Shown here: in pieces, positions 3,786 to 55,647 of the stretch
Layout of the letters: every line of letters begins with the position of its first letter
Numbering within the stretch: the stretch's first letter is position 1
Source of the DNA: a virus
Reading direction: 5' to 3' (one strand)
Virus record (IMG/VR): IMGVR_UViG_3300033997_000077
Location: 1-64,000 of that record
Length of the DNA stretch: 64,000 nt
Notes under the pieces: generated by a model
What the model was told of the DNA's origin: nothing
What the model saw: the letters and a program-made list of their open reading frames with translations, nothing else
Databases searched by the model: none
Made by a program: the position numbers and the translations under genes

Positions 3786-3795
3786 GGAACCTCCG

Positions 3796-5625: not shown

Positions 5626-5825
5626 TCTTCATTTGCGAGAAATGCGGCGCACGGGAGAACACCGCCAACTGCGGGTACTGGAACAACGGCCACCAGCTGA
5701 TCTGTAGCGTGTGCGACCCAGCCATCGGTAAGTGGCACAACCGATTCCCGCGCCGTACTGAAGACGGACGCGATCCCGAAACTGGCGAGTTCAAACCTAC
5801 GCCACCAAATCAACCACTCGTTTAA
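5622..5825 (+). CDS. small Zn-finger protein (two CxxC)
   Basis: CEKC...CSVC and GKWHNRFPR. ATGA overlap with the upstream gene. Confidence 0.6.
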   Translation: MIFICEKCGARENTANCGYWNNGHQLICSVCDPAIGKWHNRFPRRTEDGRDPETGEFKPTPPNQPLV

Positions 5826-5834
5826 GGAAAGCAA

Positions 5835-8100: not shown

Positions 8101-8103
8101 CCG

Positions 8104-9051: not shown

Positions 9052-9063
9052 GGAATACTGATC

Positions 9064-9909
9064 ATGCAAGTACAACTCTCACTCTCGAACCTCCCGACTC
9101 CGCCTGAACTTTTCGTGCGCCTCATTGCCCAACATGCGGGCTTGAGTGGCATCAAGACCTCCAAGCGTGGCACCAAATACACGGCAACTTCCGATTCAAC
9201 CTCCATTATCTATGACCAACAGGGCGGCCAAGTCTTCGTCAAGAAGGATGGCAAAGTCTTCATGGACTTCCCAGCTCCCCGCGTAGTCGGTAAGACTCTG
9301 ACCAGCGCGCAGTCTACAGCGGCTGCCAAACGCGGCGCTCAGATCAAAGCCAAGACCAAAGTTGAGGCACCGAAAGCAGGGTCACCGGAAGCACTCAAGA
9401 AGATCAAGTTCACGCCAAAGGCCCCAACTAAGCTGACCAAAGAGCAGCGCGCCGAGGTTAACGCGAAGTATGGCCCGGCGTTCGCCAAGAAAGTTATCGC
9501 GCTCGGCACTGCGCTGCTGGCTATCAAGGAAGTGAAACGCGAAACAGAGGAAGGCCCGCACGTCATGTTCTGGCCGTTCGCCTTCGGCCCAGTGACGCGC
9601 AAGGTCAAAACCGTATACGGTTCGATGCCGCGCTCCGACATTTATTCAATGATGGGCTCCGCACCTAGTATTCCGTTCAAGTCAGTCAGGGCAGTTGAGT
9701 TCCGTGGGTTTGCCAAGTGCCGCGTGTGCGGTATCAACCTCGGCGGGGCCACTCAATATTCCGCTGCTGGCGTTGCGCGCCCGAGCAACATTGCTGCCCA
9801 CTACCGCAGCCACGGCATTAACTGCAACTTGGTTGAGAAGGTTGCCACCGACAAGACTACTGGCAAGATGTACCGTGTTCTCTACGTCGGCGGGTTGAAC
9901 TCCATCTAA
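9064..9909 (+). CDS. basic hypothetical protein with C-terminal CxxC/HxxxH putative Zn site and S-x-S leader
   Basis: Starts MQVQLSLS. FRGFAKCRVCG...HYRSH. TAAGGA RBS. Confidence 0.65.
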   Translation: MQVQLSLSNLPTPPELFVRLIAQHAGLSGIKTSKRGTKYTATSDSTSIIYDQQGGQVFVKKDGKVFMDFPAPRVVGKTLTSAQSTAAAKRGAQIKAKTKVEAPKAGSPEALKKIKFTPKAPTKLTKEQRAEVNAKYGPAFAKKVIALGTALLAIKEVKRETEEGPHVMFWPFAFGPVTRKVKTVYGSMPRSDIYSMMGSAPSIPFKSVRAVEFRGFAKCRVCGINLGGATQYSAAGVARPSNIAAHYRSHGINCNLVEKVATDKTTGKMYRVLYVGGLNSI

Positions 9910-9918
9910 GGAAATCAC

Positions 9919-12564: not shown

Positions 12565-12566
12565 CC

Positions 12567-14774
12567 ATGATCAACATATCAACGTCGGCGCTGAAACCAA
12601 GTCAGTACCGACAATACGTGAAGGGGTGGAACAAAGAACGCTACGCCGATCTATTTCGCAAGTACACAGGCGACCGTAACAACTACCGCATCCACTTGCC
12701 GCTAGTGTCAGGCGCAAAGCGTGTGGCTTACGCCCCAGTGCCTGAAGCAATTCAGAAGTCAGTTGCGGAAAAGGGCTACGTTGTCGAGGACTACATCACG
12801 GGGATCGCGGTGGATGCCAGCGGTAAACGTCGCATCAAGATCGGTAAGCTGTTGACGCCGGAGTTGCAACAGGTGTTCGCCAACGACAAGTCGCGTAGTA
12901 ACGCACGCAACGCGGCGTCAGGCAATCAGATGATCGTGATCTCCCGCCACCCTTACGACGTGGCGGGGATGTCGACTGACCGTGGCTGGGTAAGCTGTAT
13001 GCACCTTGTCGGAGGCTCCAATGCCAAATACGTCAAGGACGACATCATTCAGGGTTCGATCATCGCGTACCTTGTAAGCAAAGACGACCTGAACTTGCAG
13101 CGCCCGAGCGCCCGAATTCTGTTGCGTGTCTATCGTGCGGAGAACGGCAAGAAGGGCCTGTTCCCGTCCGGCATCTACGGTGCGCGCTCTCAGTTGTTCT
13201 TCGACACTGTGCGCAAGTGGTGCAGCGAAGTGAACGCAACGTACTTCGGCATCCCCTACGGAATGACGATGGATCTGCTCGACGATCTCTACAACGATGG
13301 GCGCAAGACCGTAGTCAATGACAACTACGATCCGGCGACCGCGTTGAAGGAGTTGGAGAAGTCACTGCGCGCCAATCCCAAATCCGTGGTGGAAGAACTT
13401 GGCATGTTCGAGACCAAGTTCGGCTCCGATGTGTCTGAGTTCTACGCTCTGGTCAACGCGATCAACTCGAAAGAGATGGATATGCGCTTGGCCGAGAACG
13501 CGGTGCGTAAGATCCGGATCCTCGTCGAAGATAACGCGGTCACGCTCGCCTACAAGGACTGCGCGGAAATCGCAGCGCGCGGCTACTGCCACAACCCAAC
13601 CACGTTCGTGACTCACGACGCGCTTGCGCTGTTGCGGGTGTCGGCTATCATGGGTCAGAAGCTGCTGCATGAGATCGACGCGTTCAAGGTTGCGGCCTCC
13701 ACGGTACGCGCCGAACGTGACATTTCGATGACGCGCCTCTACACAATGATGATGGATGTTGAAGCCAGCCGTCCGTTGCTCGACGCGGCTCCGAAGTTTG
13801 GGGTCTCTCAGGAGAAGGCGCTGTCGCTGATGACTACCGACACGCACAACAACTGGCACCGCGTAGCCCTAACCAAGGCTGAACTCAAAATCCTGAAGCG
13901 GACGTGGGCGGAAGAAGGTGTCGACGAGTTGCCTCCTTACTACGAGGCAGCGCTGGCTCCCGAAACCAAGATGCCCGCAATGTTCAAGAAGTTCGTCGAA
14001 GCCGCCAACAACGAGTTCGTCAAGGGACGCTCTACGGGCCGCACGCATAGTCCGGCAACGATGAAACTGCTGATTGAGCGCATGCCTGCCGACAAGTGGG
14101 TGTCTGCGTTCCGTGGTAGCTACCTGCTCCCGTTGCTGGTGCACAGCACTTACGCCAATGACACCAACGCCACGGCGATCAGTGCGATGCGTCCGTACCT
14201 TGCAAAGCGTATTACGGATTACATGAAAGACGAAACCAAACGCGGGAGCTTCATGGTGAAAGCGTTGCTTCCCTTTGAGGGCGCAATGTCTGGCCCTCAA
14301 TACGGCCCCGAGTTCTTCCATGCTATCCCTGACGCGTTGTGGGTGGAGCCCGTCATGTCCATGATCGGTCTCGATGTGCTGTTGAATGGTAGCGGTGGAC
14401 GCGGCGCGATTGAAGGCGAGCTTGGTATCACGTCGTGGATCTCCGCTGCGCCCGTCCGCATCATGGCATTGGCAAACACGGAAGACTTCAACGGCGGCCC
14501 ATTCCAGTCGGTAATGGGTGCAATCACTGCTGACCCGAAGACCGCAGGCAAGATGGTAACGTTGCTGAAGCAGGCTCTTCGCAACGTTCCGTCGTTCTTG
14601 CGCGTGGCCCGAATGTTCCCGCTGATGCAAGCAGCGTACAACGTTCAAGAGTCCGTGGAAGACGCGCAGGAACATGGCGTCACTATCGAAGAGGAATTGC
14701 GTGACAGGTTCGGTGCAGACTTCAACCCTGCCGCCGTGCGCATGCTGCTCAATTCTGGGCTAGGCTTCATGTAA
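12567..14774 (+). CDS. large putative virion protein, paralog B
   Basis: Starts MINISTSALKPSQYR. The first ~245 aa are clearly homologous to 9919; the rest is not alignable by eye. Confidence 0.8.
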   Translation: MINISTSALKPSQYRQYVKGWNKERYADLFRKYTGDRNNYRIHLPLVSGAKRVAYAPVPEAIQKSVAEKGYVVEDYITGIAVDASGKRRIKIGKLLTPELQQVFANDKSRSNARNAASGNQMIVISRHPYDVAGMSTDRGWVSCMHLVGGSNAKYVKDDIIQGSIIAYLVSKDDLNLQRPSARILLRVYRAENGKKGLFPSGIYGARSQLFFDTVRKWCSEVNATYFGIPYGMTMDLLDDLYNDGRKTVVNDNYDPATALKELEKSLRANPKSVVEELGMFETKFGSDVSEFYALVNAINSKEMDMRLAENAVRKIRILVEDNAVTLAYKDCAEIAARGYCHNPTTFVTHDALALLRVSAIMGQKLLHEIDAFKVAASTVRAERDISMTRLYTMMMDVEASRPLLDAAPKFGVSQEKALSLMTTDTHNNWHRVALTKAELKILKRTWAEEGVDELPPYYEAALAPETKMPAMFKKFVEAANNEFVKGRSTGRTHSPATMKLLIERMPADKWVSAFRGSYLLPLLVHSTYANDTNATAISAMRPYLAKRITDYMKDETKRGSFMVKALLPFEGAMSGPQYGPEFFHAIPDALWVEPVMSMIGLDVLLNGSGGRGAIEGELGITSWISAAPVRIMALANTEDFNGGPFQSVMGAITADPKTAGKMVTLLKQALRNVPSFLRVARMFPLMQAAYNVQESVEDAQEHGVTIEEELRDRFGADFNPAAVRMLLNSGLGFM

Positions 14775-26843: not shown

Positions 26844-27659
26844 ATGCCGATTTCAATGTCGGCATTCCTTCTGCCTTCAAACGCGGCTGTGCCGTTTCTC
26901 GTCGAAGACATTTATGTCAAAGGTGGATTTCAAGTGAAGTCCACCTTCGCCGAGCTTGCGAAGATACACCCGTTCGCGAAGAAGGTGGGGATGCTCGTTT
27001 ACGTAATCGCTGACGACAAGATCTACAAACTCCAACCAGACAAGACGAACTGGGAAGAGTTTAAGATGGGCATGAGTGAAGAGGACGTGAAGAAGCTGAT
27101 TGAAGGCATGGATACTGGAGACAAGATAGGTGCAGAGTTGCCGATCCTCCTGACGCCTGTCGACAAGAAGCAAATCATCTCTCTGCACAACAGCCAGAAG
27201 ATCCCGCCATCGCCCGGCGCTGGTTACACGTTGATGTCCGGCCCTAACGGTACGTTGATGTGGATTGACACTAGCGGCCAAGATAACGCTGGTAAACGCT
27301 CGACGGTCGAGTACGAAGCTCCAACGTACTTGCAGCCATCGCAGACGCACGACTTTTCTATCAAGGCGTCGCGGGCTGTGCTGCTAATTGACGTAATTTT
27401 AAATGCGGTAGACATCGACTTTCAGATTTTCTCTACCGGTGCCTACGATGATGAAAACCCATATCGTTTCGTGAGCGGCGTTGACGTCATGTCCGATCAG
27501 GGTATCACGGTGCAGGATGGCAAGAAGGTCAAGCACCGACGCTACGCGTTCTTCGTCAATCGTACTCCCGCCTCTGACCAGCTGCATTGCCGCTTCACTA
27601 ACGTGGGTGCCGCAGCCAGTCAGCCGAAGGTAACGATCAACTATCTGGTTTTGGAGTAA
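26844..27659 (+). CDS. putative tail/fibre-associated structural protein
   Basis: AAGGAG RBS. KGG...GMLVYV..D.KIYKL...W motif; lies in the structural operon. Confidence 0.65.
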   Translation: MPISMSAFLLPSNAAVPFLVEDIYVKGGFQVKSTFAELAKIHPFAKKVGMLVYVIADDKIYKLQPDKTNWEEFKMGMSEEDVKKLIEGMDTGDKIGAELPILLTPVDKKQIISLHNSQKIPPSPGAGYTLMSGPNGTLMWIDTSGQDNAGKRSTVEYEAPTYLQPSQTHDFSIKASRAVLLIDVILNAVDIDFQIFSTGAYDDENPYRFVSGVDVMSDQGITVQDGKKVKHRRYAFFVNRTPASDQLHCRFTNVGAAASQPKVTINYLVLE

Positions 27660-33565: not shown

Positions 33566-35875
33566 ATGCAACTGTCGATTAGCTCTATTGCCTCGACTTC
33601 TGCGCAACAAGATTTCGAGTGGTACATCTACAAGGGCAGCACCTTCACTGTCACTGGTGGTACTGCCCGAGCGCAAGTCAAAGAAGGGACGCGGGTTGGC
33701 ATCCGCCCAGTTGCGCGCTCCAAGGATTACTACATCGTAACCGAGGACGCGCCGAAGAAGCTGTTCAAGATTACCAAGCAACGCGCCACCAAGATTGCAG
33801 GCACTGGCAAACGCATCAAGCGTGTTATCCTGCAAGGTGATCAGCCCACTGCGAAAACCAAAGAGATCCTCGACGACGCTGCAACTCAGAAGTTTGACGC
33901 TGACCGCTTCAAGCCGCTGGGCACCGTTCGCAACGAAGCGTTCGGGCGTGACGGCACAGAGGCGTTCGGTGTGGACACCACCAACTACCAGTGGCGCGTT
34001 GTGCGTGACCCCGAGTACCTGATCCAAACCAACAAGCGGCCTATCAAGCTGCGCCGTGGCGACAAGATCGGTATGCGCTTTGGTCGTCCGTCACAGGGCG
34101 GTAAGATCGTTGACCTCAACGGTATGTATGAGACGGTAACCACCGCCGAGTACGACCGCATTGCATCCGACCTTCCGGTAATGCCGAAAGGGCGCTGGCC
34201 GCAGACCGTTGTTACTCCCGAGATGATCAAAGAGTACCAACTCAACAAAGAGCGTCAGCGTGTTCGCGAACGTAACGAGCGCGAGAAGGAAGAGCGTGCC
34301 CAACAGGCTGCTGTCCGCAACGCAGAGCGCGAAGCCAAGCAGCAGAAGGAAGAGGAAGAACGTCAACGTCGCGCGCTGGAAGCCAAAGAGCACGGCGAGA
34401 TCGTCAAGCAGATCGACGAAGCGGCCAAGGCCGAAACCGCTAAGGCCGAGCAGCTGAAGGAAGAGCGCCGCGCCAAAGCCGGACTGCAAGACGAAGATCT
34501 CCGCAACGCCAAAGCCAGTAAGATGCAGCCGTTGGAGCACGCACTGGAAGAGGAAGACGTCGATGACGACGAGGACTTCGGTGAAGATCTGGAAGGTGAT
34601 GTCACTCGCCAGTCCGACGACAAGAAGGCCGAGCGCGTCAAAGAGAACGACGTTGAGAAAGCCAAGCTCGACGCACGCAAGCGCGCTGAAGACATCAGCC
34701 TCCGTATGGCCGAAGCACTCAAGGCCGTGATCGAAGCTGCTGGCGATGACAAGGAAGCTGAAGCAGAAGCTCGCGCCGAGTACAAGGCAGACGCCAAGAC
34801 TCTGAAAGCCGCCGACACCACCGACGAGGACAAGGATGCCATCGTTGCTAAGTGGGAAGCAAAAGCCAACGGCGGCGAAGAGCAGGAAGAGGAAGAGCAG
34901 GAAGAAGACCCTGCCGCCGAGGAAGACCCTGCCGCCGAGGAAGACCCTGCTGCTGAGGAAGAGGAACAGGAAGAAGAGGACGCCGATCCTGCCGCCGAGG
35001 AAGAGGAACAGGAAGAAGACCCTGCTGCCACCGACGAATCTCCGGACGATGAAGAGTTCGAAGAAGAGGATGACGGATCGGAAGAAGGCGACGAAGACTT
35101 CGAAGAGGACGACGCCGACGCCGCTGCTGGTGATGAATCTCCGGACGATGAAGAGTTCGAAGAGGAAGAAGAGGATCCGGCTGCTGGTGATGAATCTCCG
35201 GACGATGAAGAGTTCGAAGAGGAAGAGCAGGACGACGAAGACTTCGAACCTACTGCTGACGACGACGCCGATCTCGATGACATGGTAGAGCCCGAGATTG
35301 ACGAAGACTCCGCAGGGATCGCCGACACATTGCGCGACAATCCAGACGCGCAAGACTTCGATGACGATGACGCGGTTTCCGATCTGGCGGACGTAGACGA
35401 GGAAGACATCGGCAAAGAGCCCGAGGAAGAGAAGACCCCTCCGAAGGACGCGCCGAAGAAACCGAAGGCTAAGGAAGAAGCGCCGCCTGAAGAGTCGGAA
35501 GATGACCCGCTCGAATTCGAAGACGAAGAGGATCCCGAAGCTGAAGCAGAAGTGCCGAAGCCTGCTGGCATCAAGGATACGCAGACCGCTGAAGAAGGCG
35601 ACCTGCTGACGTTCCATGATGACACCAAGCTCAAGCGCCGCTTCCTGTTGGTATCCGCCGAGCCTATGGAGCAGAACGACCGCATCATTGTCTACAAGCT
35701 GTGGGACTTTGATAGCAAGCCGGAAACCTACCGCACTGTGCGCGTAGCTACTGACCGTGGGCAGAGCATCCTGAAGTACGCTGACAAGGTTGGTCAGGTT
35801 ACTCCGAAGGAATTCAACGAAGCGCAGGACGCCGTTGATAACGCGGAGCATGACAAATCTGCAATCAAGAGTTGA
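33566..35875 (+). CDS. putative internal head protein with S-x-S leader, coiled coil and long acidic repeat region
   Basis: Starts MQLSISSIASTSA. Two copies of a ~75-aa domain, then a charged coiled coil and D/E-rich repeats. Confidence 0.75.
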   Translation: MQLSISSIASTSAQQDFEWYIYKGSTFTVTGGTARAQVKEGTRVGIRPVARSKDYYIVTEDAPKKLFKITKQRATKIAGTGKRIKRVILQGDQPTAKTKEILDDAATQKFDADRFKPLGTVRNEAFGRDGTEAFGVDTTNYQWRVVRDPEYLIQTNKRPIKLRRGDKIGMRFGRPSQGGKIVDLNGMYETVTTAEYDRIASDLPVMPKGRWPQTVVTPEMIKEYQLNKERQRVRERNEREKEERAQQAAVRNAEREAKQQKEEEERQRRALEAKEHGEIVKQIDEAAKAETAKAEQLKEERRAKAGLQDEDLRNAKASKMQPLEHALEEEDVDDDEDFGEDLEGDVTRQSDDKKAERVKENDVEKAKLDARKRAEDISLRMAEALKAVIEAAGDDKEAEAEARAEYKADAKTLKAADTTDEDKDAIVAKWEAKANGGEEQEEEEQEEDPAAEEDPAAEEDPAAEEEEQEEEDADPAAEEEEQEEDPAATDESPDDEEFEEEDDGSEEGDEDFEEDDADAAAGDESPDDEEFEEEEEDPAAGDESPDDEEFEEEEQDDEDFEPTADDDADLDDMVEPEIDEDSAGIADTLRDNPDAQDFDDDDAVSDLADVDEEDIGKEPEEEKTPPKDAPKKPKAKEEAPPEESEDDPLEFEDEEDPEAEAEVPKPAGIKDTQTAEEGDLLTFHDDTKLKRRFLLVSAEPMEQNDRIIVYKLWDFDSKPETYRTVRVATDRGQSILKYADKVGQVTPKEFNEAQDAVDNAEHDKSAIKS
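34877..35247 (+). repeat. in-frame acidic tandem repeats (EDPAAE x3; DESPDDEEFEEE x3)
   Basis: GAAGACCCTGCCGCCGAG-type 18-mers at 34904, 34922 and 34940. GAATCTCCGGACGATGAAGAGTTCGAAGA occurs three times. Confidence 0.85.
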
Positions 35876-38744: not shown

Positions 38745-39866
38745 ATGAATAAGGTAATGGTCGCATCCATAATGCGCGACGAGGCGCGGAACATAGATGA
38801 CTGGTATGCGAGTGTGCAGCACGCGGACAAGATTGTTCTTGTCGACACTGGATCGTCGGACGACTCAGTGGCACTCGCTGAATACTACGTTGGTATCCAT
38901 CACGACATGACTGTGCTGCGCATGTTGCCTGCTGACTTCGATGGGCCCGTAGCTTACGATGTTGCACGATCAATGGCGTGTGCCGCCGCCGACCACGACA
39001 CCATTTGCATGTGGCTGGATCTTGACGAGCGCTTTATCTCGCGTGGCGTTAAGGACTGGACGGTCGAGATTCGTGAGTTGCCGGATCACGTTGACCTCGT
39101 TAACGTGCAGATGGATTTGCTTGGTGACCAGTCCATCGTCTACAAGCAAGCGAAGGGATTCCGTGGCGGCACCCATTACTGGAAGTACGCCGTGCACGAA
39201 GTGCTGAAGCCTGTTGGGCAACTCAGCGTTCCTCACGAAGCTACAACGTTCAACTCTCTGCACCTGCAAGAGCCGCACAAGAAGTATCGCAGCTTTCATC
39301 TGGATTTGCTGTTGCGCGACTACGCGTGCTTCCCGCACGACGAGCGTGTCCTGTTCTATCTGACCCGCCAGTACGCCTACGCACTGTCTGACATGATTGA
39401 AGATAGCGACGTTCCCGATGAAGCGATCATTGCGTACTACCAGCAGAACGTCAGCCGCTGCTTTGGTCTCCTGCGATCCATTGCACGCTACGATGATTTT
39501 ATCACGTGGGCAGCACTGGAAATCGCTCGGGCTGTGCAGTCCCACTCCATGCTGGCTTCTGAAGGTGCGTTGCATGCAATGATTGCGCATACGTATCGTC
39601 CAGACCGCATCGAAACGCTCGGCCAGCTGTGCATCTCGCACTACTATTCGGGCGAAGACCTTGCATGCGTCGCATTCGGCATACGTTGTATGGAGACAAC
39701 AATGCCCGTAGACAGTAATTTCATGTTCGACTACTCGAACTACTATCTACAGCAAGTTCCGGCGTTTGTGGTCAGATCGCTGGAATCGCTTCAAATGATT
39801 GATAAGGCCCATTTCTATGCACACAAATTCAAAAGAACCGATCTGCTTGAGCGAATCGGCGAGTAG
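38745..39866 (+). CDS. glycosyltransferase family 2 with TPR-like C-terminus
   Basis: IMRDEA..I, VLVDTGSSDDS, YDVARS, WLDLDER (DxD), VHE and R.LFYL.RQY. Confidence 0.85.
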   Translation: MNKVMVASIMRDEARNIDDWYASVQHADKIVLVDTGSSDDSVALAEYYVGIHHDMTVLRMLPADFDGPVAYDVARSMACAAADHDTICMWLDLDERFISRGVKDWTVEIRELPDHVDLVNVQMDLLGDQSIVYKQAKGFRGGTHYWKYAVHEVLKPVGQLSVPHEATTFNSLHLQEPHKKYRSFHLDLLLRDYACFPHDERVLFYLTRQYAYALSDMIEDSDVPDEAIIAYYQQNVSRCFGLLRSIARYDDFITWAALEIARAVQSHSMLASEGALHAMIAHTYRPDRIETLGQLCISHYYSGEDLACVAFGIRCMETTMPVDSNFMFDYSNYYLQQVPAFVVRSLESLQMIDKAHFYAHKFKRTDLLERIGE

Positions 39867-41067
39867 CTGGTGGGACAGCCGTTCTCCTGAGAAGCAACGC
39901 GCCCACATCAAACGCCATCCCAACGGCAAATACGCCAAGATGGTTAAGAACCGCCAACTCGCTCTGAAGCCTCTGAACAAGAACGCGACCTCCAAGAAAG
40001 CAAAGTTCCGCACCCCAGTCGGTGGCTCCAACGTTGACAGAAACGTTGGCGGTGACGATGGTGAAGACGATGCAGGGGAAGACGAGGAAGCAGAAGACGA
40101 AGACGAAAACGAAGACGACGCTGCTCCCGACGTAGACGACTCTGAAAAAGAGCCTGCTGAAGATGAAGAGAAGAAAGACGCCGACTTCGCAGACGAGCCT
40201 GCTGGTTTGCCAGCACCTCGCGAAACTCGCCCGATCCCTCCGCGCTCCGCAATGGCTGACTCTTACCGCAGCTCGTTGCCGGATGCGCTGAAGGCGGGCC
40301 TTCGTGCTTTCTTCAGCACTCTCGACAGTGGCCGTAGTCCCGGCACGCGTGCTGATTTGCGTGACGCGCGCGAAGAGATCAACCGTGGTGACATTCCGGC
40401 AGTGGTCAAGAAGATGAAGCCGAAGTCCCGTGAGGACGAACGCACCCTGACCAGTGCGATCAAAGCAACGTTGCCGATTGCCAAGGTTGCGGCCTACGGT
40501 CTGATTGGGGTCGGTGCCGCGATGGCTGGTGCTGGTGCTATCCCTGCAATTCTGGCGTGCTTCTTTATCAACAGCACCCTGAATGCGGAGAGCATGTCAC
40601 GTTCCGCTGTGTACGCGTCACTATCTGGTGACGAGTGTGACCGACTTGTCGAAACCTTCATGGACTGGGCCGAGGGCCTGAACCTTGACGAGATCCGCAA
40701 GAGCGCTGACAGCGAATTCACCAGCACCAGCAGCACAGGCGTCGAAGTCAAGATTCGCCGTTGCCCGCTCGATTACTACCGTGGCCTTGAAGAGGCGTGT
40801 GGTCGTCGCTACCTGCTCGTAGTAGGTCGCAAGATTCGCGGCTTCCTCATGTGGGACAAGAAGTACGGCACGCCGAACAAAGAAGCAAACGGATGGTACA
40901 GCGTCCTCGTCGATGGCTTCAATGAAAACGCGTATCGCACTGACCGCGATTCCGCTACGCTCGAACCGTACACCGCGATTCACAAAAACGACATCGTGCT
41001 CGTTAATCCCGCCCGCATGCCTTACGAGTTTGCCAAGCAGTGGGCCGTTTCAGTTCTCCGGAGATAA
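39817..41067 (+). CDS. putative head/virion protein with S-x-S site, acidic linker and a hydrophobic segment
   Basis: Probable ATG 39817 after TAAGG. Contains ICLSESASSWWD...Q..HI..HP and GLIGVGAAMAGAGAIPAILACFFI. Confidence 0.65.
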   Translation: MHTNSKEPICLSESASSWWDSRSPEKQRAHIKRHPNGKYAKMVKNRQLALKPLNKNATSKKAKFRTPVGGSNVDRNVGGDDGEDDAGEDEEAEDEDENEDDAAPDVDDSEKEPAEDEEKKDADFADEPAGLPAPRETRPIPPRSAMADSYRSSLPDALKAGLRAFFSTLDSGRSPGTRADLRDAREEINRGDIPAVVKKMKPKSREDERTLTSAIKATLPIAKVAAYGLIGVGAAMAGAGAIPAILACFFINSTLNAESMSRSAVYASLSGDECDRLVETFMDWAEGLNLDEIRKSADSEFTSTSSTGVEVKIRRCPLDYYRGLEEACGRRYLLVVGRKIRGFLMWDKKYGTPNKEANGWYSVLVDGFNENAYRTDRDSATLEPYTAIHKNDIVLVNPARMPYEFAKQWAVSVLRR

Positions 41068-41069
41068 CA

Positions 41070-41861
41070 ATGAGCGAATTTGATTCAGTGAAGGGGGCGT
41101 TCCGCTCCCTGTCCTTTGACGTCGGTGTCACTATCCCGCGTGGCCTTGACTTGCACAAGCTGCAAGCCTCCCGCCAGTCAAAGTCGATTTCAGTTCGCGG
41201 CGAAAGCATGGGCGTTCGCGAATCCGTTAACCTCGACGTGAACACTTGGCTGCCCGCCGCTGCCGAACACTACAACATTAGCCGCGACATTCGTGACTAC
41301 GTGTTGCATCCGACAGTCGTCAACGTGTCTGGCATTCCCAACACCAACGCCGACGGGTTCGGCCTGAAAGATTGGCTGACCTTCCGCCCCGAGTTCGGCA
41401 TGCTGTCCTACAAGACATTCAAAGGCAAGCCCACTTTCATCGAGCACAACAACCAGAACCACCGCGTCGCCCGAGGTGCAATCTTCGATGCGCAAATGTC
41501 GAAGTTGCAGGGCTTCCATAAAGCGCATGGCCGTCTGATTCTGCTGCTCGCCTACGACCGCAACCTTGAGCCCGAGCTGTGCCGCGACATCTTGTCTGGC
41601 GTGCACAACACCTACTCCAAGGGCACTTGGTACAAGGCGTACACCTGCTCGATTTGCGGCGAGACCTTCACTGGTAGCAGCAAGCGCTTGTGCGGTCACG
41701 TTGGCAATCGCGTAATCCGTATGCCGGACGGTCGCCTTGCTTATCGCCAGTGCCACATTCTCGAAGGCTTCGAAACCAGTGCGGTTCGCAATCCGGCCTT
41801 CGTGTGCGCATCCCCCGATCCCAAATCCGTAATGGATCCTCGCAATAAGGAACGTTGGTAA
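41070..41861 (+). CDS. prohead (capsid maturation) protease, HK97-gp4/assemblin-like, with Zn-ribbon insert
   Basis: GGAG RBS then ATG 41070. PN.N.DGF, F.GKP...EH (His), YSKG (Ser), CSICG...C.H and ETSAV.NPA. Confidence 0.75.
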   Translation: MSEFDSVKGAFRSLSFDVGVTIPRGLDLHKLQASRQSKSISVRGESMGVRESVNLDVNTWLPAAAEHYNISRDIRDYVLHPTVVNVSGIPNTNADGFGLKDWLTFRPEFGMLSYKTFKGKPTFIEHNNQNHRVARGAIFDAQMSKLQGFHKAHGRLILLLAYDRNLEPELCRDILSGVHNTYSKGTWYKAYTCSICGETFTGSSKRLCGHVGNRVIRMPDGRLAYRQCHILEGFETSAVRNPAFVCASPDPKSVMDPRNKERW

Positions 41862-46045: not shown

Positions 46046-48340
46046 ATGTCTAAGCTCTACAAAGGCATAGTCGTGGCAGCTAACAGCAAGGCGGGAGTTG
46101 TAGCAGCGTTTTCCGACGTTGCTACTGGGAAGAATGCGCGTTTCATGGCATCGGAATCCGGTGCCGTGTTCGCAACTAACGGCATTGCCTATGACCCGTG
46201 CGGTTACGGTACTGTACGTGATTTTGATGGGGTGGAGGATATGGAATTCGCCTCTGCTAGTGCGGAAGCGGAAGCTAACCTGACTGTGTGTCTGGACGGC
46301 TGCCAAAACTTCATCCTGTCTGAATCACAGTTGCAACGTTGCCCTTCCTGCTCCGCAGCCCTCACCGCAAGCGAGGAAGATATTCACGACCTCGTTTTCG
46401 GCTCTGAGTCTGACGCCCTGCTGCAAGGTAGCGACCCTCTGTTCTGCGGAACTGAAGAGCAAGCCGCTGCTTTTGCCCGTGCACTGCGCACAGGCATCGT
46501 GCCATCGTTGTCGGGGGAACTCGCAACGTTGAACTATGACCCGTACAGCGGTCAAGAGTCGGTACGAAGCTGCTCCAACGTTGCTGAATTCAGCGGCGTG
46601 TTTCACAAATTCAAGTGCGCTGCTGGTTGCAGCCACCCCGTAACGTTGTCCACTTCGGCGGACATTGTTTTCTGCGCTCACTGTAACGCTCCCCTTGAGG
46701 AACCCGAGAACATGATCAAGAAAATTGGAAGAATTGATCAGCGTTTGCACGTCTTCGCTCCGTCAGTGTCCGGTGCCCTTAACGGGCTGCGTGATCTGCT
46801 GATCAACGGCGCGGCTGGCGCAAACCACTTCGATCACAAGAACCCCGACGAGAACTTCATCTCCAACTCCGCCTGTGCGTTCAACCCGTACACTGGTAAC
46901 AACGTTGCCAGCCGCGTAGTTGATTCTCTGTCCGGTACTGGTGCTGAAATCGCGCACGACGCGCTGAACATCCACCTGTTCAAGTGCCACGATGGTTGCG
47001 GTTTCATGGCGTGCAGCTCTGCTGATGCCAACTTCTGCTCCGAGTGTGACGCTCCGCTGGTAGAGCCGAGCGAAGAAGATCTGGCTGACCTGCCTGCTGC
47101 CGACACCGTTGGCGACGACTCTTCCCTCGAAGATCTGGAATCCGATCTGGCCGAGCTGGACGCTGACGAAGAAGACCTGCTGTCTGCTTCCGGCGAGGAA
47201 GAAGAGTTCGAAGACGAGGAAGAAGAAGACCTCGAATTCGACGACGGCGACGAAGGTGACTTCGACGAATCCAGCCTCTCCGGTGACGACTACGACGACG
47301 AAGATGAAGGCGACGATATGCCTGACTTCGACGACGAAGACGACGAAGAGGAGGACGAAGAGGACGAAGAGTCCGACTTCGAAGCCGAAGGCGACTTCTC
47401 TCTGGAATCCACTTCCGGCGACGAAGGTGGCGAAGATGGCGGTGAAGATACCGACACTATGCTGACCGACGACGAGCTGGCCGAGCTGGATTTTGAAGGC
47501 GAAGACGATGACATGGAATCCGAGAGTTCGGTAATTTCTATCAGCGCGGCGGAAGCCTTGGTAGCTGATGCGGAATTCAACCTCGACTCCTTGTCCTGTG
47601 TGTTCGACGGTAAGAGCCGTTACCATGCGATCTACGACAACCTGCCGCTGGGTTCCCTGAACCTGACTGCTCTGTCTGCCGCATTGGGTGACGAAGACAA
47701 GGCCAAAGTTCTGTTCCGCAACGGTACTCTGCCTTCAATCCTCAGCGCCTCCGCACGCGAGAACGGTCTGGAGCAGGCTCTGACCGACTTGGGCTTTACT
47801 CCGGTTGAGTTCAACGTTAGCGTCAGCAACGTTCTGCAACAACGTGCAAGCAAGTCCGCTGACGAGCGTGCCGACCGTCTGCAAAACGAAATCAACACCA
47901 TCGTTGCAGATACCACTGAGCGCTACCAAGCCAGCGTCAGCACCGCGATGATCGGTCTGACTCGCGGCTTCTGGAAGCAGGATGACAACGCTGTTGCCTC
48001 CGCTCTGGTGAACAAGATGGTTGCAAGCGGCATGAGCCTGAGCAGTGCCCGTGAGATGGTAACCTCGGCGTTCGCCGAGCAGGGTGCCGAACTGATGGCA
48101 ACCGTATTCTCCCGCGCGCAGTCTCTGAGTGCGATGTCTGTCGAAGGCTACAACGAAGTAAGCCGTGCCATCGAAGACATCAACGTTGCCTCTGTTTCTT
48201 CCGGTGCTGTAGAAATCGGCAAAGTTGTGCGCAAGCCAGCTGACGCCACCAACACCGAAGTCAAGATTGCCTCCAACTCTTCTGACGCTCTCGCATGGGA
48301 ACAGAAGATGGCGGCCCTCGGTCTGAATAACCGTCGCTGA
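46046..48340 (+). CDS. putative head scaffold/core protein (3 Cys4 repeats, acidic linker, helical C-domain)
   Basis: Lies between the protease and MCP. Highly acidic, about 25 S-x-S motifs. GAGG RBS. Confidence 0.7.
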   Translation: MSKLYKGIVVAANSKAGVVAAFSDVATGKNARFMASESGAVFATNGIAYDPCGYGTVRDFDGVEDMEFASASAEAEANLTVCLDGCQNFILSESQLQRCPSCSAALTASEEDIHDLVFGSESDALLQGSDPLFCGTEEQAAAFARALRTGIVPSLSGELATLNYDPYSGQESVRSCSNVAEFSGVFHKFKCAAGCSHPVTLSTSADIVFCAHCNAPLEEPENMIKKIGRIDQRLHVFAPSVSGALNGLRDLLINGAAGANHFDHKNPDENFISNSACAFNPYTGNNVASRVVDSLSGTGAEIAHDALNIHLFKCHDGCGFMACSSADANFCSECDAPLVEPSEEDLADLPAADTVGDDSSLEDLESDLAELDADEEDLLSASGEEEEFEDEEEEDLEFDDGDEGDFDESSLSGDDYDDEDEGDDMPDFDDEDDEEEDEEDEESDFEAEGDFSLESTSGDEGGEDGGEDTDTMLTDDELAELDFEGEDDDMESESSVISISAAEALVADAEFNLDSLSCVFDGKSRYHAIYDNLPLGSLNLTALSAALGDEDKAKVLFRNGTLPSILSASARENGLEQALTDLGFTPVEFNVSVSNVLQQRASKSADERADRLQNEINTIVADTTERYQASVSTAMIGLTRGFWKQDDNAVASALVNKMVASGMSLSSAREMVTSAFAEQGAELMATVFSRAQSLSAMSVEGYNEVSRAIEDINVASVSSGAVEIGKVVRKPADATNTEVKIASNSSDALAWEQKMAALGLNNRR

Positions 48341-49132: not shown

Positions 49133-49165
49133 GCTAATTTGTGGGGCGCGATGTTCGCCCCCACA
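49133..49165 (+). promoter_or_regulatory. GCTAATTT motif followed by a 5'-leader hairpin upstream of the MCP
   Basis: GCTAATTT at 49133-49140, then TGTGGGGCG-CGATGTT-CGCCCCCACA. Confidence 0.45.
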
Positions 49166-49197
49166 TAACCTACAACTTTGAACAGGAATTCCTTCTC

Positions 49198-50301
49198 ATG
49201 ACTCAATATGCAAAAGCCAAGGGCGCTGTTGTTGCCGTTACTCGCGATGGCCGTCCCGTTACCGACCTGCCGATGTTCTCCGCTTCCAGCGGCGAGCTGA
49301 ATGCTTCCAACAAGAAAGACGCTCTGGCTCTGGGCCAGCGTTACATGGACATGATGAAGAACGGCGAAGTCGTTCTGGTTCAAGAAGATCAAGTCGGCTC
49401 CATGCAGGCTTCTATGTCCAGCGCTGACCGCATCCGTCTGGGCAACGAAGTGTTCATGGAAGCTGCCAACGATCCGTCCAAGTGGGCGTCTCTGGGTTCC
49501 AGCATCGTTGCACGCGTTGAAGACCGTGCCGAGCGTTCCGGTCTGATGCGTAACCTGCTGCAAGGTAGCACCTTGCGCCAAGGCGAAATCGCCCGTGTCG
49601 AACTGAAACAGCACGTGTGCCACGCCGTGGTCGCAACTGGCCCGTCCGATCTGGGTTACCAAATCCTGCGCGGTAAAGTCTTCAACCCGCAAGAGTTCGA
49701 AGTCAAATCCGCTGTACGTGTTCCGGTAATCGACATGCACCAGATCGCTGGTGACCTGATGGGCCGTGCCGAGCGTGACGCTCACCAGTCCGTAGTGGTC
49801 AAAGAAGACCGTCTGTTCATGGACGCTGTGTATCAGGCAGTTGGTCGTGGCAACCCGATCACCTACCTGCACGACAAACTCCTGCCGGGTCACTTGGCCG
49901 CCATGCGCGACCAGATTGACAGCTGGAACATTCCGGTCGCGGGCACCGTTCTGTCTTCCGACTTCTGGACTGACATGATCGGCAGCTCCGTGTGGATGGA
50001 AGCTCTGGAACCTGTTACCCGTTACGAACTGCTGAGCACTGGCCGTCTGGCTACTCTGCTGGGTATGGATCTGATCACCGACGGTTTCCGTGATCCGACC
50101 CAACGTGTTCTGGAACGTGGCACCCTGTTTACCTTCGCCACTCCGGAATACCTCGGCGCGTACACCACTCGCGGCGGCGCAACCAGCGAAGCGACCACTG
50201 GTGCCAACGAAGGCAACACCGACAAGGGCTGGCTGATCAGCGAGATCCTGTCTATGGTTGTTGCTAACACCCAAGGTCTGGCTCTGGCTAAACGTCAATG
50301 A
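49198..50301 (+). CDS. major capsid protein (HK97 fold, probable)
   Basis: AGGA RBS then ATG 49198, 367 aa, strong codon bias, head-module position. KEDR.F and G.L.T.LG..LITD patterns. Confidence 0.75.
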   Translation: MTQYAKAKGAVVAVTRDGRPVTDLPMFSASSGELNASNKKDALALGQRYMDMMKNGEVVLVQEDQVGSMQASMSSADRIRLGNEVFMEAANDPSKWASLGSSIVARVEDRAERSGLMRNLLQGSTLRQGEIARVELKQHVCHAVVATGPSDLGYQILRGKVFNPQEFEVKSAVRVPVIDMHQIAGDLMGRAERDAHQSVVVKEDRLFMDAVYQAVGRGNPITYLHDKLLPGHLAAMRDQIDSWNIPVAGTVLSSDFWTDMIGSSVWMEALEPVTRYELLSTGRLATLLGMDLITDGFRDPTQRVLERGTLFTFATPEYLGAYTTRGGATSEATTGANEGNTDKGWLISEILSMVVANTQGLALAKRQ

Positions 50302-50729
50302 AGCTGAGCGCCAGTTTGACAGCAATGTCACTCTCGGCGCTTCGTAGCGGTCGCGTACAGGACGCTGCGGAACTCCTAAGTCAGGCGGCATTCGCCGATG
50401 ACGCGCAAGCACTCATTGCATCTCTCGTAGATGACAACGAAGTTGCGTGCAGTTTGAGTTCCGCAATCCTTGCGCCGGAATCGGAACTGGGGGCAGTCAT
50501 TGACTCTCTCAGTTCCGAACTGTCGCGTATCGACCGACTCAGCAAGATGTCCGATCCTCTGGAAGACATCTTGAGCGTCGCGGATGACGACTCGGATGAC
50601 GATGACCAAATTGACCTCGGCGTACTCGACTTCGAAGACGAAGAAGAGGAAGACGATGACTCTTTCGAATCAGAAAGTTCCGACGTTCAACCTTCCCTGA
50701 TCAAGCTGACATTCAGCGAAGTGGACTAG
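50298..50729 (+). CDS. small acidic head core protein with several S-x-S sites
   Basis: Starts MKLSASLTAMSLSA; internal CSLSS, DSLSS and ESESS. Coupled to the MCP (ATGA). Confidence 0.65.
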   Translation: MKLSASLTAMSLSALRSGRVQDAAELLSQAAFADDAQALIASLVDDNEVACSLSSAILAPESELGAVIDSLSSELSRIDRLSKMSDPLEDILSVADDDSDDDDQIDLGVLDFEDEEEEDDDSFESESSDVQPSLIKLTFSEVD

Positions 50730-53671: not shown

Positions 53672-54409
53672 ATGAAGCTGAACATCAAGACCGTATCCGT
53701 TTCCGCAGCCGCTGACTTTCTGGATGCCGACAAGCACCTCAATCTGAAAAAGGTCGAAGCCGCTGGCAAGAAGATCGTTGCTGCCGCTGAGCGTTTCGCC
53801 AAGGCTCAAGCCAAGGGTGACGCAGTAGCCGCCAAGGTTATCGCTCGCATCGGATCTAAAACTCCGAAGCAGATCGAGAAAGCGATGAAGCCTGTTGGCT
53901 ACTACGTGATGAACAAGAAAGTGCACTCCAAGGTAGAGAACTACTCTGCCGTTAAGGCCAAGAAAGGCGATGCCGCCTATCTGCGCAAGCGCGCTTTCCG
54001 TGTTATGAGCCGCAAGACTCCGACCGATGCCTACGCCGTCCTCTCTCCGATCTACGACGTTCGCATTCTTGGCAAAGAAGCTGCTGCCATCCAGCGTGAC
54101 CTGATCAAGGCCATCGAAACCCATATGGGCGGACTGGACAAGACCAAGGGCCGCGCCAGCGAAATCACTCAGGCGACCCAAGCAGCCAACACCGCTGACT
54201 TCCGCAAGTCCGCTGATTTGGTGATTGGTACTCTGATCGGTGCTGCTGGCTCCAAGATCAAACAAGCCAACGTGTTCGAGTCTACTCCGGCGCGTGGCGT
54301 TCCCGCCGTTTACATCAACGTGCCCGGCGCTGGTGTTCTGGTTCTGCGTCATGCAACCAAAGCACAGCTGGCAGCTGCCAAGAAAGCCGCCGCAACTCCG
54401 GCCCAGTAA
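53672..54409 (+). CDS. Lys/Ala-rich basic protein with S-x-S leader
   Basis: Starts MKLNIKTVSVSAA. Strong codon bias; sits between sheath and tube. Confidence 0.7.
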   Translation: MKLNIKTVSVSAAADFLDADKHLNLKKVEAAGKKIVAAAERFAKAQAKGDAVAAKVIARIGSKTPKQIEKAMKPVGYYVMNKKVHSKVENYSAVKAKKGDAAYLRKRAFRVMSRKTPTDAYAVLSPIYDVRILGKEAAAIQRDLIKAIETHMGGLDKTKGRASEITQATQAANTADFRKSADLVIGTLIGAAGSKIKQANVFESTPARGVPAVYINVPGAGVLVLRHATKAQLAAAKKAAATPAQ

Positions 54410-54981: not shown

Positions 54982-55647
54982 ATGCTCTTAAATTTGAGCC
55001 TATCCGCCGCCAAGCCGCAGTACACTGAATTCGACTGGTTCAAGTTTACTGGGGTGCGTGGTGTATATCTCGAAAACAAGGAATACGAAGTCCAAATCGA
55101 CGCGGGCGAACGCTTCGGTGTTTTCATCGCGCAGCGTGGCGTTATCTACGTTGTGCACGAAGACCTGCCGACTGAGCTGTTCAAGTGCGATGCGAAAACC
55201 GCACGCTCTCTAATGAGTCGAGCAACGTACTACAAGGGACGCGTTAAGGGCAAAGCTGTAAACAACAGCAGACTTGTCAAAGGCGCGAACGTTCCACGTG
55301 ACCCGACTGCGCAGCCGCCAGCAGACCCAGCACCGGAAACCAAAACCAAAGCTGTGGGCAACGCCAAAGACATCTTGACCGCAATCCGCAAGCAATCGTT
55401 CGCCAAGCCGCGCAGTATCACCTACATGCGCAGTGCCGATATGGGCGAGGGCAAAGTGTTCTACTACGACGCGACTTCTTCCTACGTTGAATCCAAGTTG
55501 AAGGCCGCACAGTGGGAGAAGCACGCGGAGAAGATGCTGCTTGCCGCAATGGCGGGCACCAGTCACGAAGTCGGGGCAGTCGTGCAGCAACCAACATCAA
55601 AGACGCAGCCCGAGCGGGCGGTGTTGATGGTTAAGGTGGACACATGA
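54982..55647 (+). CDS. putative head protein with S-x-S leader
   Basis: Starts MLLNLSLSAA. GGAGG RBS. N-domain is similar to those of 33566 and 5835. Confidence 0.65.
   Translation: MLLNLSLSAAKPQYTEFDWFKFTGVRGVYLENKEYEVQIDAGERFGVFIAQRGVIYVVHEDLPTELFKCDAKTARSLMSRATYYKGRVKGKAVNNSRLVKGANVPRDPTAQPPADPAPETKTKAVGNAKDILTAIRKQSFAKPRSITYMRSADMGEGKVFYYDATSSYVESKLKAAQWEKHAEKMLLAAMAGTSHEVGAVVQQPTSKTQPERAVLMVKVDT

Follow-up and report, generated by a model that had tools for sequence, protein, structure and literature searches.

What reads a tripeptide that recurs 25 times in a single phage head protein? This question is raised by a 64,000-nucleotide stretch of viral DNA (positions 1 to 64,000 of the IMG/VR record IMGVR_UViG_3300033997_000077; hereafter, the window), which comes from a jumbo myophage of the Lu11/PaBG/Y3 group and contains the head-assembly module of this phage. 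PHROG matches identify the region from 38 to 56 kb as the head and tail module, and a 764-residue scaffold-like protein encoded there is studded with S-x-S. A preliminary description of this locus had put forward S-x-S↓[AGS] (the arrow marks the predicted cut) as the cleavage consensus of the prohead protease encoded in the same module. From the analyses described below we consider it probable, at roughly 0.7, that S-x-S followed by a small residue is the cleavage code of this protease, and that the 764-residue protein is a scaffold or core protein which is diced into peptides of 6–86 residues. The coordinates of all features are collected in Table 1.

S-x-S motifs are enriched in the 764-residue protein

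The 764-residue protein contains 84 serines, which is 11.0% of its residues. An exact count of overlapping S-x-S motifs gave 25, and 19 of these were followed by Ala, Gly or Ser, precisely the figures that the preliminary description had given as approximations; every S-x-S string it had quoted was also found in the translation. Comparison with composition-preserving shuffles revealed a strong excess. Shuffling of the whole protein yielded 9.1 ± 2.7 S-x-S and 2.7 ± 1.6 S-x-S[AGS], and neither observed count was reached in 5,000 shuffles. When the residues were shuffled only within blocks of 20 or 40, so that the local composition was kept, the expectation was the same (8.8 ± 2.6 and 2.7 ± 1.6, respectively) and the observed counts were reached in none of 1,000 shuffles. 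This indicates that local serine-rich patches are not the cause of the excess, and it rules out whole-protein composition and local low complexity as its origin.

In a scan of all residue pairs at spacings of 1 to 3, the pair S.S ranked first at spacing 2 (z 5.7), and no Ser-Ser pair at spacing 1 or 3 was among the six most enriched. The 761-residue database copy of the protein (P0001, 100% identical) likewise contained SS and S..S at about the expected frequencies (7 versus 9.0 and 11 versus 9.1 expected). In P0001 and its 27 next-closest homologs, the z scores of SS and S..S ranged from −1.4 to 1.9, whereas those of S.S ranged from 3.4 to 6.1. The motif serines were encoded by 36 TCN and 14 AGY codons in 14 different codon pairs. 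Since both serine codon families are used, selection must act on the protein and not on a DNA word, which rules out a motif at the DNA level.

The residue following the motif, which would be P1′, was Ala at eight, Gly at seven and Ser at four of the 25 sites, and Val, Phe, Ile, Leu or Met occupied P5 at 16 of them. As an alternative code we considered [AGS]-x-E, of the type found in phiKZ and SPN3US. This motif was not enriched in the 764-residue protein (31 versus 24.6 expected, z 1.6) and was depleted in its distant homologs (z down to −4.9), probably because Glu is concentrated in the acidic linker.

Among 59 open reading frames (ORFs) of the window, which were crudely called, only the 764-residue protein and a 422-residue protein encoded at 39799 carried at least two sites at p<0.01; the latter contained five S-x-S[AGS] versus 0.7 expected, a number reached in none of 5,000 shuffles. 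Over their full length, the protease (3 versus 2.0 expected) and the capsid protein (2 versus 1.7) were not enriched. In addition, the sites of the 764-residue protein were spaced more evenly than random ones (coefficient of variation of the fragment length 0.53 versus 0.93, P=0.0003 in 20,000 draws), and cutting at all of them would leave fragments of 6 to 86 residues. The sites in the homolog of Dickeya phage JA11 were also more even than random (P=0.027). The four sites that the preliminary description had placed at regular spacing in the acidic linker are present, but with gaps of 30, 45 and 37 residues their spacing is only roughly regular.

The motif is conserved and switches between Ser and Ala

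A search across 5.8 billion proteins returned 45 homologs of the 764-residue protein. S-x-S[AGS] was enriched at z ≥3.3 in 42 of these, and the other three (P0031, P0038 and P0040) were enriched in A-x-A[AGS] instead (z 5.8, 9.3 and 6.8). For the sharing of individual sites we aligned 29 of the 45 homologs, leaving out 16 near-duplicates or fragments. Eighteen of 27 sequences had the site at residue 380; for residues 492 and 743 the figure was 17 of 29, and for residues 70 and 101 it was 16 of 29. Other sites were lineage-specific, such as 693 (1 of 29) and 602 (3 of 25). The linker sites align with S-x-S motifs of phages JA11 and Y3.

Among cultured relatives, the homologs of JA11 and Y3 contained 13 and 16 S-x-S[AGS], respectively, where about 3 were expected. 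The homolog of Lu11, in contrast, contained no S-x-S[AGS] but 17 A-x-A[AGS] (4.7 ± 2.0 expected), and that of PaBG contained six S-x-S[AGS] (1.8 expected) together with 15 A-x-A[AGS] (4.2 expected). In both Lu11 and PaBG the scaffold homolog was the strongest A-x-A[AGS] outlier of all proteins tested (38 and 42, respectively). When the five proteins were aligned, the two groups differed in several columns, one having S-x-S and the other A-x-A: CPSCS/CPACA in a zinc knuckle, SAS/AQA/AIA, SVS/ALATA, SLS/AKA and SNS/SQS/ATA/AVA. Such a switch within homologous columns argues for a reader with a lineage-dependent preference.

The mixed forms S-x-A[AGS] and A-x-S[AGS] remained near expectation in 44 of the 45 homologs, the exception being S-x-A in P0036 (z 3.8). 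P3 and P1 thus appear to be coupled, and the motif is better written as small-x-small in matched pairs, either S-x-S or A-x-A. Scaffold homologs with both S-x-S and A-x-A were seen in PaBG (L002 17353–19284) and in the loci L052, L058, L045 and L072.

Leaders of other proteins end in the same motif

The preliminary description had noted that the sites of the scaffold-like protein match a leader of presumptive cargo proteins. Indeed, leaders of 6–15 residues that end in an S-x-S motif are shared by unrelated proteins of the window. The strict pattern M-x-hydrophobic-x-hydrophobic-S-x-S opens ten genes, namely MKIQLSMS (3069), MQIQLSLS (3796), MIILLSTS (4305), MEIRLSLS (5182), MRIQLSLS (6656), MKILMSLS (8104), MQVQLSLS (9064), MLHISTS (9919), MINISTS (12567) and MLLNLSLS (54982), and looser leaders occur at 4874, 5835, 26844, 33566, 50298 and 53672. 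Eleven genes form an island, starting at 3069, 3796, 4305, 4874, 5182, 5835, 6656, 8104, 9064, 9919 and 12567. Most of the strict-leader genes are preceded by a purine-rich stretch resembling a ribosome-binding site. On the 129,992-base contig, an S-x-S ending at residues 5–16 was found in 26 of 132 ORFs, versus 6.7 ± 2.3 for internal windows (maximum 16 in 2,000 draws). This count was based on a crude greedy ORF set, to which five genes were added and from which six antisense or overlapping ORFs were removed by hand, and a few of the 26 positives are probably not genes (e.g. 432–683, 76558–76755, 79226–79627 and 92893–93270).

In JA11, Y3 and Lu11, the leaders of the orthologs are of the Ser or Ala type that is proper to each lineage, and further leaders in Lu11 read MKVYLAIA and MFISIAWA. 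The small acidic protein of 143 residues contains the five S-x-S noted in the preliminary description, although this number is not significant (4.1 expected, p=0.40), and its S-x-S[AGS] count is marginal (4 versus 1.2 expected, p=0.034). Its homologs follow their lineages: S-x-S[AGS] was counted three times in Y3 (0.4 expected) and JA11 (0.6 expected), and A-x-A[AGS] four times in PaBG (0.8 expected) and twice in Lu11 (0.3 expected).

In RSL1, several small proteins (L005 7296–9560 and 16821–17321) share the N-terminus M-x-Y-x-I-[ST]-A-A-x-x-R-L, as in MISISAALLRL, MTYNISAATKRL and MAYDITAAVSRL. In that genus, this shared N-terminus may correspond to the leader.

Leaders, capsid protein and protease largely follow the type of the scaffold

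Co-variation was assessed with a set of 80 IMG/VR loci, which were collected with 10-kb flanks from an alignment of the capsid protein. A scaffold homolog was present in 75 of these loci, and 68 with an ORF of at least 500 residues were kept. Each distinct capsid-protein sequence was counted once (47 and 49 rows), loci without leaders were left out of the leader comparison, and L008 is not in the table of capsid sites.

The leaders were of the S-type in all 18 phages with S-rich scaffolds and of the A-type in 10 of 15 phages with A-rich scaffolds; the mixed phages L052 and L058 carried both kinds. The leaders and the scaffold of the same phage thus mostly make the same Ser/Ala choice, and the match of scaffold sites and cargo leader in the preliminary description is upheld.

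For the capsid protein, two sites had been proposed to lie near the mature N-terminus, FSAS↓SG and ASMS↓SA, and both strings are present. The FSAS↓S block directly precedes a conserved TGE.NA block, and relatives read ALSES, ALSSS, ALSSA, ALDGK or ALSSG in its place. S-type phages have SES, SSS or SQS at this place, other phages SSA, SSG, SSN, SST, DGK, DQK or DPK. Its behaviour thus departs from that of the remaining sites, and it was set aside as the maturation site. A second site follows about 40 residues past the TGE.NA block. Where the scaffold is S-rich, this site is S-x-S (..LVHSTS, ..VHSHS, ..QEVSES), and where the scaffold is A-rich, it is A-x-A (..QIATA↓SS, ..QMAIA↓SS, ..EEAVA↓A). 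Its type agreed with that of the scaffold in 46 of 49 distinct capsid proteins (22 S/S, 24 A/A and 3 discordant). In the window this site is SMS, residues 91–93 of the ORF as called or 72–74 counted from Met20, and the predicted cut after Ser93 (residue 74 from Met20) would remove 20% of the 367-residue precursor. According to a PaBG study, the capsid protein of that phage loses about 20% of its mass upon maturation, and gp80, gp81, gp191, gp213 and gp215 run as multiple bands (PMC7412058). We therefore favour SMS↓S as the predicted maturation site, because it tracks the lineage type and fits this mass loss.

In the protease, the strings RSLSF (residue 22), SKSIS (residue 47) and YSKG (residues 192–195) of the preliminary description were all located. 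All 20 phages with S-rich scaffolds had S-x-S↓F at the N-terminal site, and 5 of 12 with A-rich scaffolds had A-x-A↓F (ATA↓F or AMA↓F) there, in a count that leaves out ALG↓F, SQC↓F, CQA↓F, ATS↓F, NSG↓L and one gap.

We mapped the two types onto a tree of the 49 capsid proteins (quick maximum-likelihood IQ-TREE). The S-type label changed four times, with at least two changes forced by well-supported branches, and the A-type label five times, with at least four so forced. A separate S-type lineage, L049, was concordant in all four contexts: its scaffold count is 17 versus 6, its capsid site is SVS, a leader reads MRIYLSLS and the protease site is SES↓F. The strength of the co-variation argument therefore lies in the joint switching, within a few transitions, of numerous sites in four protein contexts, and not in the number of lineages.

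The protease has the fold of T4 gp21 and herpesvirus assemblin

A model of the protease built from 61 homologs had a mean predicted local distance difference test score (pLDDT) of 87.8 and a predicted template modelling score of 0.83. Foldseek alone gave weak matches to this model, the best being T4 gp21 (E 0.069). Structural re-alignment with VIA-align, however, superimposed it on T4 gp21 (5jbl_A) with a Z of 10.1 and a root-mean-square deviation of 2.8 Å over 138 residues, and on the proteases of herpes simplex virus 2, human cytomegalovirus, Kaposi's sarcoma-associated herpesvirus, Epstein–Barr virus and pseudorabies virus (1at3, 1nkm, 2pbk, 1o6e and 4v08) with Z values of 5.0–7.4, whereas unrelated rows reached at most 4.5. 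The modelled protease thus has the fold shared by T4 gp21 and herpesvirus assemblin. His136, Ser193, Gly195, Glu245 and Ser247 were invariant in the 61 aligned sequences and His220 nearly so.

The residue following Ser193 differed between the two types: of 21 S-type proteases, 20 had Lys at position 194, whereas all 13 A-type proteases had Met or Leu, and columns 94, 95, 107, 137, 154 and 211 were likewise among those that separated the types. However, the independent S-type lineage L049 has Val at position 194 and the S-type set is essentially one clade, so that no specificity determinant can be named. The split at residue 194 may reflect descent and not specificity.

Two further features of the protease were observed. 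Residues 196–237 form a Cys/His-rich insert (YTCSICGETF...CGH) with weak matches to C2H2 zinc fingers in a PDB sequence search and in Pfam, and Cys203 and His220 are nearly invariant in the homologs. Moreover, many homologs (P0046, P0049, P0054, P0068, P0071, P0073 and others) are 520–870 residues long and match in two pieces; the break lies near residue 135 and so adjoins the invariant His136. P0046, with 649 residues, is 92% identical, and the protease ORF of L032 comprises 886 residues. This looks like a large insertion in the protease gene of close relatives, possibly an intein or a homing element.

A predicted cleavage code and its alternatives

The cleavage consensus of the preliminary description was thus supported by the enrichment in the homologs, by the Ser/Ala co-variation in four contexts and by the fold of the protease. 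We infer that the protease reads the motif as follows. Its substrate would be an extended strand in which P3 and P1 are Ser, P5 or P4 is usually hydrophobic and P1′ is small (Ala, Gly or Ser), and the cut would fall after the second Ser. The 764-residue protein would first be incorporated into the prohead and later cut at up to 25 sites, presumably all of them, into peptides of a size that can leave the shell. The leaders of about 16 proteins of the window would act like the capsid-targeting sequences (CTS) of T4, loading these proteins into the prohead before being trimmed. The N-terminal propeptide of the capsid protein would end at SMS↓S, and RSLS↓F would be the protease's own N-terminal processing site.

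Several observations weigh against this reading of the motif. Its support consists throughout of sequence statistics. The Ser/Ala switch traces to few events: the supported branches provide two phylogenetically independent pairs for the capsid site and one each for the protease site and the leaders, and with one or two pairs per comparison no sign test can reach significance. The lineage rule also has exceptions, as 5 of the 15 A-rich-scaffold phages carry S-type leaders and 7 of the 12 carry S-x-S↓F in the protease, and the scaffold homolog of RSL1 is enriched in neither S-x-S nor A-x-A. The mixed S-x-A and A-x-S are not enriched even in homologs that are enriched in both matched forms, which would not be predicted from independent S1 and S3 pockets. 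Within the 764-residue protein, 9 of the 25 sites lie in predicted helices or strands, so that some may be inaccessible and remain uncut, and the sites showed no excess in coil (16 of 25 versus 54 of all 84 serines). Finally, the even spacing of the sites was absent in the homologs of Y3, Lu11 and PaBG (P 0.70, 0.67 and 0.09, respectively).

A bolder extension of the cleavage reading is that the head proteome and the protease have co-evolved a matched P3/P1 code, both Ser or both Ala and hardly ever a mixture, with dozens of sites in at least four substrate classes rewritten together at least twice. We regard this as conceivable but doubtful. Under such co-evolution, the Ser/Ala choice would depend in part on the residue that follows the presumed catalytic Ser, and PaBG, L052 and L058 may use the two forms as two tiers that are cut at different rates or stages, in which case the use of Ser or Ala at a site would encode when it is processed during prohead maturation.

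The co-variation demonstrates a common reader but not its identity, and the reader could also be a docking partner. The motif would then be an assembly or targeting signal, an amphipathic strand that docks by strand addition on a common partner in the prohead core, such as the scaffold, the portal or the shell, with few or no internal cuts. The leaders do alternate hydrophobic residues and Ser, as in MKIQLSLS; several sites in the N-terminal half of the 764-residue protein directly follow predicted strands; and the matched-pair rule would suit a surface that touches both side chains at once. Yet the four contexts, that is the scaffold, the leaders, the capsid propeptide boundary and the protease terminus, are classical substrates of prohead proteases. 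Docking would leave some 25 copies in one protein, four of them in a disordered acidic linker, without an obvious use. Moreover, it overlaps with the cleavage reading, since targeting and cleavage coexist in T4. The capsid site, in addition, is located where the PaBG capsid protein loses about 20% of its mass (PMC7412058). We consider docking without cleavage improbable.

Still less credible is the view that the pattern has no dedicated reader and arises as a by-product of structure or composition, for instance from serine-rich loops after strands or from low-complexity drift. It would accord with the serine content of the 764-residue protein, with the share of the sites in coil, which is no higher than that of serines in general, and with the RSL1 homolog, which lacks the motif. 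However, shuffles that keep the local composition never attained the observed counts, Ser-Ser pairs at neighbouring spacings were not enriched in P0001 and its 27 closest relatives, and neither the preference for Ala, Gly or Ser at P1′ nor a coordinated change from Ser to Ala in four unrelated contexts would be expected from drift. That S-x-S is a sequon for serine modification deserves very little credence, be it O-glycosylation by the GT2-TPR glycosyltransferase or phosphorylation. The glycosyltransferase gene does lie directly upstream of the genes for the 422-residue protein and the protease, here as well as in JA11, Y3 and Lu11. Lu11, however, keeps this gene while its scaffold homolog is devoid of S-x-S[AGS], and the leaders, the capsid site and the protease site switch to Ala too. 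Since Ala can be neither glycosylated nor phosphorylated, its presence in the homologous columns of Lu11 and PaBG excludes serine modification as the meaning of the motif. The least probable alternative is cleavage by host signal peptidase I, with the leaders as export signals. Signal peptidase I requires small residues at −3 and −1, a rule that both S-x-S and A-x-A fit, but leaders of 6–15 residues have no hydrophobic core of the length found in signal peptides, the capsid protein, the scaffold and the protease assemble in the cytoplasm, and there is no reason to expect the preference of a host enzyme to alternate between Ser and Ala in step with the phage lineage.

Architecture and role of the 764-residue protein

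The model of the 764-residue protein had a mean pLDDT of 63.4. Its N-terminal modules are small and strand-rich and are built around Cys4 clusters, of which C82/C86/C99/C102 is invariant and C314/C318/C331/C334 nearly invariant among the homologs. They are followed by the acidic linker, whose pLDDT is below 50 almost throughout (in five segments), and by a helical domain spanning residues 496–711 in the model. Residues ~215–330 comprise an extra, middle (third) Cys4 module that is not found in the homologs of JA11, Y3, PaBG and Lu11.

Public records label this family as an ATPase (phrog_20988 and RefSeq relatives). This label is unsupported: neither G-x4-GK[ST] nor [AG]-x4-GK[ST] occurs as a Walker A motif in the 764 residues, no ATPase family of Pfam was detected, and the model had no Foldseek match in the PDB at an E of 0.001 or better. 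The annotation can thus be corrected.

The gene sits between the protease and capsid genes and encodes an acidic, partly disordered protein. Together with the density of sites, these properties suggest a scaffold as the most economical role, and a heavily processed internal head protein would be equally compatible with them. No Pfam family at all scored above the cut-off, and the structural search just mentioned likewise yielded no relative for the model, so that the scaffold role has no direct support; scaffold proteins are poorly conserved, however, and the lack of a match decides nothing. Of the PaBG virion bands, 14 were identified; they include gp83 but not the neighbouring scaffold homolog gp82 (PMC7412058, Table 1). 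This lends weak, indirect support to the removal of gp82 from the mature head, as the virion list comprises only Coomassie-visible bands.

Relation to known head-maturation systems

The predicted cleavage system resembles the head maturation of T4 and of phiKZ/SPN3US, from which it would differ in having Ser or Ala at P1 and P3. With T4 it shares the protease fold (Z 10.1 to 5jbl) and, by prediction, recognition at P3 and P1, as well as the placement of the protease gene beside the genes of an acidic multi-site core protein and the capsid protein. It also shares short N-terminal leaders that end in the protease motif, as in the CTS of IPI–III and Alt, and a capsid propeptide, which is removed from gp23 in T4 and predicted to be removed here. 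T4 gp21, however, cleaves (L/I)-x-E after Glu, whereas Ser, or Ala in sister lineages, would occupy P1 and P3 here. In addition, T4 gp22 lacks the Cys4 modules of the 764-residue protein, which in turn has no detectable similarity to any solved structure or Pfam family, and about 16 leader-tagged proteins are encoded in this window alone.

Herpesvirus assemblin belongs to the same fold class (Z 5.0–7.4). An invariant Ser and an invariant His are common to both, and assemblin has a P1 that is small and uncharged and a small P1′ residue, as predicted for the present protease. Its consensus is (V/L)-x-A↓S, and the A-type relatives of the present system often read A-x-A↓S. Assemblin processes itself and the scaffold, as is predicted here. 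It differs in cutting at only two or three sites with a hydrophobic P3, as opposed to dozens of predicted sites with matched Ser or Ala at P3 and P1, and its sequence identity to the protease of the window is 6–12%.

phiKZ cleaves at (S/A/G)-x-E. Like the phage of the window, SPN3US (protease gp245) and phiKZ (gp175) are jumbo myophages, and many of their head proteins are processed, as is predicted here. For SPN3US, mass spectrometry defined the P3-P2-P1 code as A-x-E, and Ser was favoured at P1′ and Val at P4; propeptides contained several copies of the motif and gp245 cleaved itself (PMC10052503). This P3/P1 logic matches that of the present motif, but P1 is Glu there and Ser or Ala here, and the propeptides there are long in comparison with leaders of eight residues. 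Moreover, SPN3US and phiKZ belong to a different phage group than the 'Lupandier' group of Lu11, PaBG and Y3 (PMC7412058).

We found no report of a cleavage motif for the group of Lu11, PaBG, Y3, JA11 and RSL1 in a search that left much subscription literature and many supplements outside its reach. The accessible part of the JA11 paper contained nothing on processing (PMC6143709), and nothing relevant was present in the corresponding parts of papers on phage G (PMC12484599) and jumbo-phage capsids (PMC5646251) or in a preprint on phage Matilda (10.64898/2026.10.21.760668).

If the code is as proposed, the processed and packaged head proteins of this entire group of jumbo phages, which includes the relatives of Lu11, PaBG, Y3 and JA11 as well as many uncultured phages, could be listed from sequence; for the window this list would include the island of about 11 leader-tagged proteins. 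The code makes definite predictions for the mature N-terminus of the capsid protein, which would begin SADRIRLG, for scaffold fragments of at most 86 residues and for the self-cleavage site of the protease. The T4 CTS has already been used to load foreign proteins into capsids, and the eight-residue tag described here could be tried to the same end in capsids of this group. The matched Ser/Ala switch would represent a natural experiment in the joint change of specificity of a protease and all its substrates. Furthermore, a small uncharged P1 would place the present enzyme nearer to herpesvirus assemblin than to the Glu-specific enzymes of T4 and phiKZ, a point of relevance to the common ancestry of such maturation systems.

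Gene order, relatives and other observations

The gene order in the window is protease, 1381-residue protein, 764-residue protein, virion protein and capsid protein. JA11, Y3 and Lu11 keep the order of protease, scaffold homolog, virion protein and capsid protein. By tblastn, the closest cultured relatives are the Dickeya phages JA11 and JA29, Yersinia phage fHe-Yen9-02 and, among the Erwinia phages, Y3, Yoloswag, Alexandra and the pEa_SNUABM series; PaBG and Lu11 are more distant. Identity to the cultured relatives was 30–32% over about half of the 764-residue protein, about 50% for the protease and 38–47% for the capsid protein. The nearest relative of all is an IMG/VR contig of 229,746 bases (L008), whose capsid protein is 98% identical.

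Table 1. Positions of the features discussed, in window coordinates (↓, predicted cut)
Feature	Position	Strand	Remarks
Island of 11 genes, each starting with an S-x-S leader	3069..14774	+	
271-residue protein, MPISMS↓A	26844..27659	+	Weak leader; JA11 and Y3 orthologs MLTS and NMTS
769-residue protein, MQLSISSIASTS↓A	33566..35875	+	Orthologs MLSQS↓A (JA11), MVLSES↓A (Y3), MIISLAAA↓A (Lu11)
Glycosyltransferase, GT2-TPR, conserved	38745-39866		Directly upstream of 422-residue protein and protease; likewise in JA11, Y3 and Lu11
422-residue protein	39799..41067	+	phrog_31537; five S-x-S[AGS], including ICLSES↓A near N-terminus
Prohead (head maturation) serine protease	41040..41861	+	phrog_18299, E 1.2e-87; probable start ATG 41070
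RSLS↓F at protease N-terminus	41103..41117	+	Predicted self-cleavage site (RSLSF, residue 22)
YSKG with invariant Ser193 (residues 192-195)	41613..41624	+	Presumed nucleophile
764-residue scaffold-like head protein	46046..48340	+	25 S-x-S; N-terminal Cys4 modules, acidic disordered linker, helical C-terminal domain; phrog_20988
Acidic disordered linker (residues 351-494)	47096..47527	+	56% Asp+Glu; S-x-S at 380, 410, 455 and 492
Virion structural protein	48402-49115		PHROG match
Major capsid protein, HK97-like	49141..50301	+	phrog_2522, E 6.5e-80; phage G gp27 (6wkk), E 5.1e-7; probable start ATG 49198
FSASSG (residues 46-51)	49276..49293	+	First-proposed capsid site; conserved block, lineage type not followed
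ASMSSA (residues 90-95)	49408..49425	+	Favoured capsid maturation site, predicted
143-residue acidic protein	50298..50729	+	Leader MKLSAS / MSLS↓A; four S-x-S[AGS]
Tail sheath	51957-53669		PHROG match
245-residue protein, MKLNIKTVSVS↓A	53672..54409	+	
221-residue protein, MLLNLSLS↓A	54982..55647	+	Orthologs MLFFVSVS↓A (JA11), MLIFLSES↓A (Y3)

The 1381-residue protein (41855–46000), encoded between the protease and the scaffold-like protein, has no leader and contains no S-x-S[AGS] (0.9 expected) and three S-x-S (4.2 expected). Its last ~160 residues alone match a protein of 367–370 residues encoded at the same position in JA11 and Y3 (phrog_37079), and the remainder is a lineage-specific extension. 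Outside the window, the same genome carries a 710-residue ORF (C1 66749–68881) whose start resembles, by eye, a DNA methyltransferase (SPPY). At codon 300 of this ORF (Met at 67646), preceded by GAGGAA, the leader-like sequence MEIKLSVS↓AFKPK is present in frame. Translation may start internally here, or the sequence may be an internal site of cleavage that frees a packaged C-terminal part.

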